17,683 nucleotides of DNA from a virus (taxonomy: Duplodnaviria > Heunggongvirae > Uroviricota > Caudoviricetes): the IMG/VR virus record IMGVR_UViG_2526164647_000009, one strand, 5' to 3'. The position numbers and the translations under genes are program-made. Each line of letters opens with the position of its first letter. Position 1 is the first letter of the stretch. This document shows positions 404-3,882 of this stretch, piece after piece. Below the pieces are notes generated by a model. The model was not told the origin of the DNA and made no database searches. It was given only the letters and a program-made list of their open reading frames with translations.

Positions 404-447
404 TTGAGGTGTACTGGCAATAGCGGACACTACCATTTGTTCTTTTT

Positions 448-1266
448 TTAAGCAGCCATCTGATGATATTTTTCCCTGAAGGCTGCCGGGGAGATATTCC
501 CCAGACGAGAGTGACGACGCTGACGATTGTAGAAAATCTCAATGTATTCCCGTATTACTGAGATGGCTTCATCCCGGTTATTAAAACGATAGTGGCTCAG
601 GCTCTCATTTTTCAGCGTTCCCCAGAAGCTTTCCATCGGAGCGTTGTCGTAACAGTTACCTTTACGCGACATTGATGTTTTCAGACCAGACTGCTCCTGT
701 ATGACCCGGTAATCGTATGCGCAGTACTGTGAACCTCGATCAGAGTGGTGGATTAGCCCGGCAGGTGGGCGCTGGCTCCTGAGCGCCATAAACAGGGCTT
801 TACCTGTCAGCTCTTTTGTCATGCGCTCTCCCATGGCGTAGCCGACAATTTCGCACGTATAAACATCTTTGATGCCAGCGAGGTACAACCATCCCTCCTG
901 TGTGGCAACATACGTCAGGTCCGCCACCCAGACCTGATTTGGTGCTGTAGGAGCGAACGTCTGGTTCAGCAGATTTGGCGCAACTGGCAGATTGTGGTTC
1001 GGGTTCGTAGTCGCTCTGAACTTGCGTTTCTGCTTACAGCGTAGCCTCAGCTCCTTACGAAGACGTGCCAGTCGGTCACGACCAACGATGATGCCATTCT
1101 CTGCCAGCTCCGTCTGGAGCCGCCGGGTTCCATATGTTTCGCGAGTGCGGATATGTGCCACCTTAATCTCCAGTTTTAGCCGCTCATCACTTTGTTTTCT
1201 GTCTGAGGGTTCATGCTGTACCCAGTTGTAATAACCGCTCCTGGATACACCAAATACCTGACACAT
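448..1266 (-). CDS. IS3-family transposase OrfB (DDE catalytic domain), IS600-like, copy A
   Basis: The 272-aa ORF has the IS3-family integrase signature ([11 protein letters not shown]...EGWLYLA...HHSDRGSQY...[15 protein letters not shown]). It is in the -1 frame relative to the upstream orfA fragment. It differs from copy B at one residue (Leu32 versus Pro32, base 1172 versus 3113). Confidence 0.9.
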
Positions 1267-1301
1267 CGCTTCAATGGGAAATTGTTGTCGCCATTGTTCG
1301 A

Positions 1302-1482
1302 TTAACGCGTATTTTTCAGCGACTCCTGTGCAAAATACGCTGTTGATTTTTTTAATATATCGCGCTCAAGGCGAGCTTCATTTAACGCCTTACGCAGTTG
1401 CAGAATTTCAGATTCCAGTTCAGCCACCGTGCGGGAACCAGGAGTACCGAGCCCTTTTCTGGCGGCGGTAACCCATTGTCCT
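1302..1482 (-). pseudogene. IS3-family OrfA C-terminal fragment (leucine-zipper part only), IS600-like copy A; the N-terminal helix-turn-helix part is absent
   Basis: The translation ...GQWVTAARKGLGTPGSRTVAELESEILQLRKALNEARLERDILKKSTAYFAQESLKNTR shows a heptad Leu pattern and the YFA motif of IS3-family OrfA C-termini. An A7 run (1347-1353 on the minus strand) sits at the orfA/orfB overlap. The homology ends at about 1482, where the palindrome junction lies. Confidence 0.8.
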
Positions 1483-1487
1483 GAAGG

Positions 1488-1490
1488 CAC
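1488..1490. repeat. CAC, left copy of the 3-bp target-site duplication flanking IS629
   Basis: CAC lies immediately outside the IS629 terminus at 1491 and again at 2797-2799. Removing IS629 plus one CAC restores an open orfA reading frame (cct gaa ggc act tta gga caa tgg = PEGTLGQW). Confidence 0.8.
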
Positions 1491-1532
1491 TGAACCGCCC
1501 CGGGTTTCCTGGAGAGTGTTTTATCTGTGAAC

Positions 1533-2419
1533 TCAGGCTGCCAGATCATCGTTTCCGATGGAAGCATAATAAGCTTTTTCTGCTTCTGCCGGAGGGATGT
1601 GGCCCAGCCTTTCCAGCAATCGTCGATTGTTATACCAGTCCACCCACGTGAGTGTGGCCAGTTCCACTTCTGCACGGTTTTTCCAGCTCTTACGGTGTAT
1701 TACCTCCGCTTTGTAAAGACCATTGATGCTCTCCGCCATCGCGTTGTCATACGAGTCGCCTGTACTTCCTGTTGATGCCAGTAATCCGGCTTCCTTAAGC
1801 CGCTGTGTGTAGGCCAGCGATACATACTGAGAACCTTTATCACTGTGATGGACCGTGCCGGACGGTCGACGGGCCCATAACGCCTGCTCCAGTGCATCCA
1901 GCACGAATGTCGTTTCCATGGACGATGAGACCCGCCACCCCACGATGTATCCGGCAAACACATCAATGATGAACGCCACATAGACGAAGCCCCGCCATGT
2001 GCTGACGTAAGTAAAATCAGCCACCCACAGCTGGTCAGGTCGTTCTGCCACGAACTGACGGTTTACGCGGTCGCCTGCGGCAACGGCTTTCCGGCTGATG
2101 GTCGTACGGACCTTTTTACCCCGGAGAACACCGGCAAGTCCCATAACCGCCATGAGACGTGCCACAGTGCATCTGGCCACTCTGATACCTTCCCGTAACA
2201 ACTGACGCCAGACTTTACACCGTATACCTTGTGATTTTCATCGTATACGCGCTGTATCTCTTTCTTCAGCCAGTCATCGCGCTGCGCACGGGCACTGCGT
2301 TTATCCGGATGATGTCGCTGTTGCTGACAGTGGTAATACGTTGACGGGGCAATATGCAGTTCGCTGCATAGCGGTCCGCCCCCGTACTGCTCACGCAGCT
2401 TATCCAGCAGTGGCATCAT
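1533..2419 (-). pseudogene. IS629 transposase OrfB, frameshifted near 2195-2215 into two ORFs (2063-2419 and 1533-2201)
   Basis: The N-terminal ORF ([22 protein letters not shown]...ENHKVYGV) and the C-terminal ORF ([24 protein letters not shown]...DDE domain...NDDLAA) are in different frames. The span is 887 nt (3n+2). The reading ...[14 protein letters not shown]... that I remember for IS629 OrfB implies about 4 bp missing between ggtgt and aaagtctgg. Confidence 0.8.
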
Positions 2420-2742
2420 TTTTTCCAGAGGCGGTCGAACTCCGCCTTCGCAAAATAAGCGGAAGCCTGGCGAAGGATATCGTTACTGCGGCGCAGTTCA
2501 CGATTTTCACGCTCCGGCTCTTTCAGACGCTGACGTTCAGCGGTGGTGAGCCCTCCATCACCGCCCCCGGTATCCCGCTCATGCTGGCGACCCCAGACAC
2601 GCAGAGTCTCCGGCGTACAGCCAATCTTTGGAGCAATGGAACAAATTGTCGCCCATTGTGAGTCATATTCGCCCTGACTTTCCAGAACCATACGGACTGC
2701 CCGTTGACGGACTTCGGGGGAAAAACGAGTATTTTTAGTCAT
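2416..2742 (-). CDS. IS629 transposase OrfA (helix-turn-helix and leucine zipper), 108 aa
   Basis: [108 protein letters not shown] matches my memory of IS629 OrfA. Its stop overlaps the orfB ATG (ATGA). It lies 40 bp inside the right-hand inverted repeat. Confidence 0.9.
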
Positions 2743-2796
2743 CCTGTTTACCTCTTTCTCAGGAAGTTTAGTCTCCAGGATTCCCGGGGCGGTTCA

Positions 2797-2799
2797 CAC
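2797..2799. repeat. CAC, right copy of the 3-bp target-site duplication flanking IS629
   Basis: Same trinucleotide as 1488-1490, directly abutting the other IS629 terminus. Confidence 0.8.
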
Positions 2800-2800
2800 T

Positions 2801-2983
2801 TTAGGACAATGGGTTACCGCCGCCAGAAAAGGGCTCGGTACTCCTGGTTCCCGCACGGTGGCTGAACTGGAATCTGAAATTCTGCAACTGCGTAAGGCGT
2901 TAAATGAAGCTCGCCTTGAGCGAGATATATTAAAAAAAGCAACAGCGTATTTTGCACAGGAGTCGCTGAAAAATACGCGTTAA
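2801..2983 (+). pseudogene. IS3-family OrfA C-terminal fragment, IS600-like copy B; the N-terminal part is absent from this window
   Basis: The frame reads LGQWVTAARKGLGTPGSRTVAELESEILQLRKALNEARLERDILKKATAYFAQESLKNTR and stops at 2981-2983. There is no upstream start, helix-turn-helix region or left inverted repeat. Confidence 0.8.
2932..2939 (+). promoter_or_regulatory. A7G (A AAA AAG type) -1 ribosomal frameshift motif at the orfA/orfB overlap of the IS600-like element
   Basis: The A7 run followed by G sits at the point where orfB is open in the -1 frame relative to orfA, which is the standard IS3-family OrfAB fusion mechanism. The mirror motif in copy A (1346-1353, minus strand) has T instead of G after the A7 run. 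Confidence 0.7.
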
Positions 2984-3018
2984 TCGAACAATGGCGACAA
3001 CAATTTCCCATTGAAGCG

Positions 3019-3837
3019 ATGTGTCAGGTATTTGGTGTATCCAGGAGCGGTTATTACAACTGGGTACAGCATGAACCCTCAGACAGAAAACAAAGTGATG
3101 AGCGGCTAAAACCGGAGATTAAGGTGGCACATATCCGCACTCGCGAAACATATGGAACCCGGCGGCTCCAGACGGAGCTGGCAGAGAATGGCATCATCGT
3201 TGGTCGTGACCGACTGGCACGTCTTCGTAAGGAGCTGAGGCTACGCTGTAAGCAGAAACGCAAGTTCAGAGCGACTACGAACCCGAACCACAATCTGCCA
3301 GTTGCGCCAAATCTGCTGAACCAGACGTTCGCTCCTACAGCACCAAATCAGGTCTGGGTGGCGGACCTGACGTATGTTGCCACACAGGAGGGATGGTTGT
3401 ACCTCGCTGGCATCAAAGATGTTTATACGTGTGAAATTGTCGGCTACGCCATGGGAGAGCGCATGACAAAAGAGCTGACAGGTAAAGCCCTGTTTATGGC
3501 GCTCAGGAGCCAGCGCCCACCTGCCGGGCTAATCCACCACTCTGATCGAGGTTCACAGTACTGCGCATACGATTACCGGGTCATACAGGAGCAGTCTGGT
3601 CTGAAAACATCAATGTCGCGTAAAGGTAACTGTTACGACAACGCTCCGATGGAAAGCTTCTGGGGAACGCTGAAAAATGAGAGCCTGAGCCACTATCGTT
3701 TTAATAACCGGGATGAAGCCATCTCAGTAATACGGGAATACATTGAGATTTTCTACAATCGTCAGCGTCGTCACTCTCGTCTGGGGAATATCTCCCCGGC
3801 AGCCTTCAGGGAAAAATATCATCAGATGGCTGCTTAA
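3019..3837 (+). CDS. IS3-family transposase OrfB (DDE domain), IS600-like, copy B
   Basis: The 272-aa ORF is identical to the copy A OrfB except for Pro32. Confidence 0.9.
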   Translation: MCQVFGVSRSGYYNWVQHEPSDRKQSDERLKPEIKVAHIRTRETYGTRRLQTELAENGIIVGRDRLARLRKELRLRCKQKRKFRATTNPNHNLPVAPNLLNQTFAPTAPNQVWVADLTYVATQEGWLYLAGIKDVYTCEIVGYAMGERMTKELTGKALFMALRSQRPPAGLIHHSDRGSQYCAYDYRVIQEQSGLKTSMSRKGNCYDNAPMESFWGTLKNESLSHYRFNNRDEAISVIREYIEIFYNRQRRHSRLGNISPAAFREKYHQMAA

Positions 3838-3882
3838 AAAAAGAACAAATGGTAGTGTCCGCTATTGCCAGTACACCTCAAA

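Follow-up and report, generated by a model that had tools for sequence, protein, structure and literature searches.

A 1.08-kb IS600 palindrome in a lambda-like prophage as the likely scar of an inverted-repeat-guided deletion

The nearly precise excision of Tn10 and Tn5 is the classic natural case of deletion stimulated by inverted repeats; Tn10 uses a much longer repeat for it than the one described below. Such stimulation declines as the spacer between the inverted repeats lengthens. Fold-back inverted and tandem inversion duplications, which are seeded at quasi-palindromes, also end as long inverted repeats whose short, asymmetric centre is bounded by a micro-inverted repeat, and in eukaryotic cells the trimming of palindromes after a break at their centre leaves this shape as well. 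In E. coli it is established that inverted repeats stimulate deletion between short direct repeats, by slipped mispairing or by SbcCD-dependent annealing, according to a passage of PMC11754738 that cites Bzymek and Lovett (2001); the same article describes slippage at repeats of 2-12 bp (PMC11754738).

Here we have analysed a window of 17,683 nucleotides, the whole of draft contig AFGV01000031.1 of assembly GCA_000213675 (17.7 kb, beginning inside a repeat), in which two IS600 arms form a near-perfect palindrome around an IS629. Comparison with related genomes shows this palindrome to be the scar of a single 1866-bp deletion, probably guided by an inverted repeat, that fused two independently inserted, head-to-head copies of IS600. 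Symmetric loss of the centre of such an opposed IS pair was among the options named in the original prediction, and both the undeleted state preserved in a relative and the junction itself support it. The product is an ordinary deletion scar: as in the inverted-repeat-stimulated deletions of E. coli, inverted IS copies capable of forming a hairpin have lost their centre through breaks in a short direct repeat close to the base of the stem, away from any IS terminus, and each copy has left a part of itself behind. Unlike the Tn10/Tn5 type of case, the elements here stand head to head with a 1.5-kb loop, the base of the stem is set by a third IS (IS629) that breaks one copy, the product still holds a 1078-bp inverted repeat, and the microhomology is just 4 bp (7 of 8 when extended).

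The arms occupy positions 405-1482 and 2803-3880 (1078 bp each) and differ, in a base-by-base check, at only four positions (853/3432, 1172/3113, 1346/2939 and 1362/2923), an identity of 99.6% over a length far beyond what chance can account for. The near-perfect 1.08-kb palindrome of the original prediction is thus confirmed, as are the two mismatches it had called certain (1172/3113 and 1346/2939, OrfB Leu versus Pro and OrfA Ser versus Ala), to which two more are added. A repeat search of the window returned slightly longer inverted arms (399-1486 and 2799-3886, 1088 nt, 99% complementary); the few further matching bases outside the element-bounded arms, at 399-401, 404 and 1484-1486, are chance or quasi-palindrome. 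The left arm (405-1482, minus strand) is the remnant of an IS600 copy A, running from IS600 position 1264 down to 187 and retaining the right terminal repeat, orfB and the 3' half of orfA. It is followed by eight bases of a second copy, B (1483-1490, plus strand, IS600 positions 176-183), then by IS629 (1491-2796), then by the right arm, positions 181-1264 of copy B (2797-3880, plus strand, the arm proper beginning at 2803). The final layout is A(1264-187), 8 bp of B, IS629 and B(181-1264), with a spacer of 1320 bp. Nothing lies between the arms besides gaaggcac, IS629 and cacttt, as had been claimed, and the claim that orfA of IS600 runs on uninterrupted beside IS629 is upheld.

IS600 (IS3 family, 1264 bp, TG...CA ends, 3-bp target duplications) is the evident source of both arms, which are 99.5-99.8% identical to a 1264-bp copy in a related genome, L010 (the left arm 99.8% to its full-length copy A); the first 534 bases of that copy in turn match, at 99.6% identity, an element in L001 annotated 'IS3-like element IS600 family transposase'. 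Compared with full IS600, the window retains the right end only, with positions 1-186 missing from A and 1-171/175 from B, and the complete forms with their duplications (GTC for A, AAC for B) occur only in relatives. Judged by their sequence, both arms are 5'-truncated remnants without left end or orfA start, not intact elements. The central insert (minus strand, 1306 bp) is recognised as IS629, an IS3-family element of 1310 bp, by its 25-nt terminal inverted repeats, its ORFs and a 3-bp target duplication, CAC (1488-1490 and 2797-2799); phage records contain 1310-bp copies, one with the annotation IS629, to which it is 98.9-99.1% identical. It differs from the 1310-bp element in being 4 bp shorter and in its orfB, which is split into two ORFs beside an intact orfA (2416-2742), and the copy is therefore probably inactive.

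Relatives were located by exact-protein look-ups anchored on the large terminase, encoded at 4160-6088 (plus strand), whose exact 642-aa protein was found on 26 of the contigs read. To the right of the inverted repeat the window continues into the 3' part of nu1, the small terminase gene (3881-4188, plus strand), cut by the insertion of IS600-B with duplication AAC, and then into the large terminase gene. In L001, L005, L006 and L009 nu1 is uninterrupted, and L009 has no IS at all, with empty sites GGGTCCTC and GAAACTAC; at nu1 the empty site reads GAGAAACTACTC. L010 holds copy A with its GTC duplication, a 1505-bp spacer, positions 1-183 of copy B, IS629, and positions 181-1264 of copy B, the B insertion being bounded by the AAC duplication. 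IS600-A thus lies in reverse and IS600-B forward in nu1, their 5' ends facing each other 1505 bp apart; L002, L007 and L011 carry the two copies head to head as well. The inference of two independent IS600 insertions in opposite orientation is therefore borne out by full 1264-bp elements, their own 3-bp duplications and empty sites. The reasoning first offered for it, that the outer flanks are unrelated, does not hold: on the left, all complete genomes examined continue into the same prophage, and the IS66 flank is peculiar to the draft contig.

The deleted, palindromic form is shared by the window, L003 and L004/L012. It is present in complete chromosomes, namely L003 (with 12 further places counted as similar) and L004/L012, where the proposed search for the same junction in related genomes found the central junction; a 62-aa ORF specific to the junction is encoded on four contigs longer than 1 Mb. 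A further state of the locus combines the 1866-bp deletion with one of 25 bp. The complete chromosomes that carry the prophage are probably those of Shigella flexneri. In a collection of complete E. coli genomes without Shigella chromosomes, neither the whole structure nor the junction of left arm and IS629 had a match in one piece.

A three-way comparison with L010 gives the extent of the deletion. The 1866 bp lost comprise positions 1-186 of A, positions 1-171/175 of B and, between them, the 1505-bp spacer, in which cos and the 5' part of nu1 lay. On side A, L010 reads CCCATTGTCCT up to the break and AAAGTGCC beyond it; on side B it reads ATCTCTTCCT and then GAAGGCAC; the window joins CCCATTGTCCT directly to GAAGGCAC. 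The microhomology at the junction, TCCT (1479-1482), corresponds to the reverse complement of copy A 187-190 and to copy B 172-175; it stands on both sides before the deletion and once in the product, so that one copy was kept. Beyond it the direct repeat extends to the 8-mers TCCTAAAG and TCCTGAAG, which match at 7 of 8 positions (TCCTrAAG). This direct repeat arises because IS600 contains a weak 19-bp quasi-palindrome (172-190) that reads nearly alike in both orientations. Folding of the quasi-palindrome (-2.9 kcal/mol, z = -0.86) was no better than that of shuffled sequence; we therefore drop it as a driver of hairpin formation and keep it as the source of the direct repeat.

The deletion was probably guided by the stem that the two IS600 5' ends could form, 183 bp with one mismatch, whose base is the insertion point of IS629, where homology breaks. 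Relative to this base, one endpoint lies 3 nt outside and the other 8 nt inside. In IS600 coordinates they are separated by no more than about 15 bp; by a rough estimate, only some 0.3% of random endpoint pairs would lie that close. The sequence thus presents the features expected of slipped mispairing: inverted repeats before the deletion, a short direct repeat, and endpoints near the hairpin base. Other matches of 4-6 bp exist within 40 bp of the stem base and TCCT is just 4 bp long, so the choice of repeat was not uniquely determined.

The order of events is not the one originally proposed, in which IS629 was a simple insertion into an already-formed palindrome. The IS629 of L010 lies at the identical site in copy B (IS600 positions 181-183), in the same orientation and with a 100% identical sequence, as it does in L002, L007, L008 and L011; indeed, window positions 1479-4400 are 100% identical to L010 7320-10241, IS629 included. 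Since IS629 occupies the same site in undeleted head-to-head relatives, it is older than the deletion, and a palindrome with an 11-bp spacer therefore never existed. The puzzle that had been raised about the instability of long palindromes in E. coli dissolves with it, because the repeat was always spaced by about 1.3 kb. The genome comparison shows that a lambda-like prophage gained two separate IS600 insertions, copy A in reverse between the lysis genes and cos and copy B forward inside nu1, that IS629 then entered copy B at IS600 positions 181-183, and that one later deletion took A 1-186, the 1505-bp spacer and B 1-171/175. In this last step the 183-bp IS600 5' ends would pair as a hairpin stem on single-stranded DNA, across whose base the replication machinery would most likely slip, with no need of a transposase.

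Slippage of this kind has its difficulties. For the hairpin to form, about 1.9 kb (183 + 1505 + 183 nt) would have to be single-stranded at the same time, close to the most that a lagging-strand gap offers, and a long spacer weakens the stimulation by inverted repeats; TCCT is very short, with competing matches within 40 bp of the stem base; and the local quasi-palindrome is thermodynamically unremarkable. A less likely route, which we would still take seriously, begins from the same ancestor and yields the same junction and symmetry: the IS600 hairpin or cruciform would be cut, for example by SbcCD, and its ends resected and annealed at TCCT, by single-strand annealing or alternative end-joining, so that only the enzymology differs from slippage. 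Cleaved palindromes in E. coli are normally repaired from the sister chromosome, and their ends are degraded by RecBCD. Four bases are also very short for annealing, and only by coincidence would resection on the two sides stop within about 15 bp of symmetry, unless what is left of the stem shields the ends. In favour of this route, SbcCD-dependent annealing is one of the two mechanisms named from Bzymek and Lovett (2001) in the passage of PMC11754738 noted above. A transposase-driven origin, either as a deletion adjacent to IS629 or IS600 (possibly via the IS-excision enhancer) or as a composite element with two IS600 right ends, is highly improbable. IS3-family elements and the excision enhancer do produce flanking deletions (PMC9397093), and related loci carry deletions that stop at an IS600 terminus or no more than 5 bp from it (one of 130 bp on the virulence plasmid pINV, and a variant in L008). 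Deletions made by a transposase, however, have an endpoint exactly at an IS terminus; in the window neither endpoint coincides with a terminus of IS600, and 8 bp of IS600 with an intact CAC duplication persist beside IS629. The composite form is rejected by the absence of a target duplication around the whole unit, which has TAT to its left and AAC to its right; in complete genomes the two sides belong to separate insertions, one at the GTC and one at the AAC site.

The alleles of the arms decide against the other way of building such a shape, in which one truncated IS600 would have been copied in reverse after a snap-back at CCT/AGG, making the left arm a copy of the right. As IS600 sequence, the 11-bp 'spacer' runs without a break into the right arm; it is bounded by CCT/AGG and could form a small hairpin, as a fold-back or template switch would lead one to expect, but that hairpin is the one no more stable than shuffled sequence. 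The left arm carries A-type alleles (307C, 323T, 497T and 816C in IS600 positions) and the right arm the B-type alleles of copy B in L010 (307A, 323G, 497C, 621G and 816T); the four arm differences are thus older alleles of independent copies in undeleted relatives, and a fold-back copy is therefore excluded for practical purposes, making this the least probable of the readings. The left arm moreover stops precisely at the IS terminus, and an undeleted ancestor exists. In contrast to fold-back duplications, the arms here are older, independently inserted and distinct in alleles, and DNA was lost, none duplicated. An assembly artefact, with the inverted repeat or its centre a chimera of the draft contig, had also been raised, and is about as improbable as the transposase-driven origin. 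Such an artefact could be suspected from a 17.7-kb draft contig that begins inside a repeat, has two single-base insertions relative to the complete genomes and a left flank unlike all of them; however, window positions 405-879 and 905-4400 recur at 100% identity in the complete chromosomes L003 and L004, each arm has kept its own alleles, and the presence of the same junction in L003 and L004/L012 disposes of a chimera at the centre.

The objection is limited to the join with the left flank, which lies somewhere in 405-1171. Positions 1-404 (minus strand) hold a fragment of an IS66-family transposase gene (Pfam DDE_Tnp_IS66 on the called gene) found at this place only in this contig, the complete chromosomes having phage DNA there, which in L004 includes a 60-aa phage ORF upstream of copy A (6093-6275). 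Plasmid CP026791.1 of S. flexneri 61-4982 carries an IS66::IS600 junction with 100% identity to window positions 285-525; other pINV plasmids have 130 more bases at that junction, and it is absent from the complete E. coli genomes searched and present on Shigella plasmids. Either an assembly chimera or a genuine crossover between plasmid and chromosome may account for the IS66 flank. That the flank is genuine seems rather doubtful; if it is, the IS600 embedded in IS66 on pINV would have recombined with arm A of the prophage, bringing in all or a segment of the plasmid; a single crossover of that kind would give exactly the junction in the window. IS-mediated integration of Shigella pINV into the chromosome has been described, the published events having used IS1294 (Pilla et al., 2017, PMC5629016). 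Compared with those events, the junction here involves IS600 and occurs in one draft contig, possibly as an assembly join; if real, the contig would record one junction of a chromosomally integrated pINV, via IS600 rather than IS1294. The chromosomal context of its first ~400-1170 bases is untrustworthy without read support.

For annotation, the two 'IS600' genes of the window are remnants, and the prophage lacks cos and the 5' part of nu1; the inverted-repeat structure has no function and is a decay scar in an already defective prophage. An improbable-looking, near-perfect palindrome of 1 kb is reduced to ordinary steps, each visible in a sequenced relative, and would offer a natural example of an inverted-repeat-guided microhomology deletion whose hairpin base was set by a third IS. 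Many Shigella chromosomes still carry its product, two inverted arms of 1.08 kb around a spacer of 1.3 kb.

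The long inverted repeat proposed in the original prediction is real: a repeat search returned inverted arms of 1088 nt that are 99% complementary, and base-by-base comparison confirmed two element-bounded arms of 1078 bp each, at 405-1482 (IS600 copy A, reverse orientation) and 2803-3880 (copy B, forward within nu1), with four mismatches between them (853/3432, 1172/3113, 1346/2939 and 1362/2923). Each arm encodes a 272-aa OrfB, the pair differing at Leu/Pro32. To the left lies part of an IS66-family transposase gene, and to the right the 3' part of nu1 followed by the large terminase gene; the arms themselves are separated by gaaggcac, then IS629, then cacttt. 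This IS629 copy (1491-2796; 1306 bp versus 1310 bp in Stx phage records) has 25-nt terminal repeats and is flanked on both sides by a CAC duplication corresponding to IS600 positions 181-183. Its insertion point is the tip of a 19-bp IS600 quasi-palindrome, positions 172-190 (window 1479-1490 and 2797-2806). Near 2200 its orfB is interrupted, leaving ORFs of 118 and 222 aa, and the copy is therefore probably inactive.

Searched for as an exact protein, the large terminase was found on 26 contigs, mostly complete chromosomes, which we take to be Shigella flexneri from their accession series and matching plasmid records; mapping IS600, IS629 and phage segments onto related loci defined a series of states. 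Four loci (L009, likewise L001, L005 and L006) lack any IS and have an intact nu1, with empty sites ...CAGGGTCCTCGG... and ...GAGAAACTACTC.... Locus L010 carries, in order, a phage 60-aa ORF, a full 1264-bp copy A in reverse orientation (duplication GTC), 1505 bp of phage DNA (the cos region and the 5' part of nu1), copy B 1-183, IS629 (duplication CAC), B 181-1264 (duplication AAC) and the 3' part of nu1. L003 and L004/L012 share the window's palindromic form; their left flank is phage DNA, and their left arm has lost a further 25 bp.

Comparison of these loci shows that the palindrome is the product of a 1866-bp deletion (L010 5458-7323) from an L010-type ancestor, with L010 7320-10241 identical to window 1479-4400 at 100%. 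Side A reads ...GGTAACCCATTGTCCT|AAAGTGCC and side B ...CGATTATCTCTTCCT|GAAGGCAC-IS629; the window reads ...GGTAACCCATTGTCCT|GAAGGCAC-IS629. The deletion also took away cos, from a prophage that was already dead. IS629 had been thought to enter an already-formed palindrome, but undeleted L010 has a 100% identical IS629 at the same site and in the same orientation (the defective copy is likewise 100% identical in L003 and L004), and IS629 is present in all other undeleted relatives. As the deleted state cannot revert, IS629 must have preceded the deletion, and a palindrome with an 11-bp spacer therefore never existed; the spacer of the inverted repeat was always ~1.3 kb. Inverted repeats with a spacer of this size are the architecture of tolerated composite transposons, so the supposed puzzle of how a long palindrome remained stable dissolves.

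The arms also preserve their separate origins. When L010 copy A is taken as reference, the right arm differs by 307A, 323G, 497C, 621G and 816T, exactly as L010 copy B does, and the left arm by 621G alone. These arm-specific alleles exclude a fold-back event that copied the left arm from the right; the four mismatches are inherited differences between two independent IS600 insertions, as originally suggested.

The junction falls within a 4-bp direct repeat, TCCT, with 7 of 8 bases matching over TCCT(A/G)AAG. This repeat exists because IS600 172-190 is quasi-palindromic (TCCTGAAG-GCA-CTTTAGGA), so that an inverted copy displays a nearly identical 8-mer reading in the same direction. The 5' ends of copies A and B could form a 183-bp stem with one mismatch, whose base is the exact point at which IS629 interrupts homology; measured from this base, the deletion ends 3 nt beyond the stem on side A and 8 nt within it on side B. 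In IS600 coordinates the two endpoints are at most ~15 bp apart, for which we roughly estimate an unguided probability of ~0.3%. We infer a short-direct-repeat deletion stimulated by inverted repeats, in which the two 5' ends would pair as a hairpin stem and the deletion would run between the short direct repeats across its base. The passage of PMC11754738 that cites Bzymek & Lovett (2001) names slipped mispairing during replication and SbcCD-dependent annealing as two routes known from E. coli, and slippage at 2-12-bp repeats is documented in the same paper; we favour slippage, with SbcCD-dependent annealing the less favoured alternative. The hairpin route would need a long loop, with ~1.9 kb single-stranded at once, further 4-6-bp matches occur nearby, and the local quasi-palindrome folds into a hairpin of unremarkable stability (-2.9 kcal/mol, z = -0.86). 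Transposase-driven or IEE-type deletion (of the type in PMC9397093) was rejected for the window event, neither endpoint being at an IS terminus, as was movement of a composite element, since the outer flanks do not form a duplication.

Other loci record different events. At L008 7140-7160, both copy A and the spacer of 1505 bp have been lost except for five bases of the A terminus, TGAGG, and the sequence GTC-TGAGG runs directly into copy B at its left end (TGAGGTAGCC); with endpoints at or ≤5 bp from IS600 termini, this variant suggests a transposase-mediated event, not slippage. The L010 arrangement is further elaborated in L007 by a full IS600 (6049-7312) nested in B at position 167 with duplication TAT, and in L002 and L011 by an extra IS3-family element of ~1249 bp (6248-7496) within IS629; this small prophage region is an IS pile-up. 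L003 and L004 are 100% identical to window 905-4400 and, separately, to 405-879, window 880-904 (IS600 765-789, bounded by GC dinucleotides) being absent at 6746-6747. The palindromic scar is still undergoing decay, with the window representing the earlier state.

The left flank requires a separate explanation. The window is the complete 17,683-bp draft contig AFGV01000031.1 (assembly GCA_000213675.2), and its positions 285-525 are 100% identical to a junction in S. flexneri 61-4982 plasmid CP026791.1, where a full IS600 lies within an IS66-family element near ospI (IS66::IS600 junction sites: window 1-404 and 405-1171; L014 6001-6241; L015 4100-4256). Other pINV plasmids, such as LR213456.1, retain a further 130 bases that separate the IS66 sequence from the end of IS600, and have a CAC duplication, so the 130-bp deletion is derived and common to the window and 61-4982. 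It ends precisely at the right terminus of IS600 and resembles an adjacent deletion of the transposase type; outside the window, it was found only in CP026791.1 among the pINV plasmids compared. The pINV IS600 copy carries 307A, 323G and 497C, where the left arm is A-type; any plasmid-to-prophage switch would therefore lie within 405-1171, where all copies are identical.

Such a switch could be a draft-assembly join through the repeat or a real single pINV-prophage crossover, and the two fit the sequence equally well. We lean towards the join: the contig begins inside a repeat and, against the complete genomes of L003, L004 and L010, contains single-base insertions at 15120 and 15957. These two insertions are probably draft sequencing errors, bear on trust in the contig, and leave the tape-measure gene as three separate ORFs (14102-15136, 15081-16010 and 16042-16872). 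Exact-protein matches to the 62-aa ORF spanning the left arm and the 8-bp junction are the window itself and four contigs >1 Mb, all four with a phage left flank. A crossover, which we regard as the less likely of the two, would make this junction the mark of a pINV integration mediated by IS600 in this strain; pINV-chromosome crossover of this type has been shown, using IS1294 rather than IS600 (PMC5629016).

Elsewhere, the portal gene is split at 6272-7865 (351 aa plus a second ORF), likewise in the complete-chromosome relatives taken as Shigella, versus a 530-aa portal in relatives with intact nu1; this is a further sign of a defective prophage. A 94-nt direct repeat (8819-8912/8969-9062; 73% identity, 150 nt apart) within the S49 peptidase/scaffold gene is probably an internal protein repeat.

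We did not find this specific reconstruction described in a literature search. The elements are simply IS600 and IS629, and the rearrangement is of a known type; the reconstruction is neat, but it shows nothing outside known kinds.
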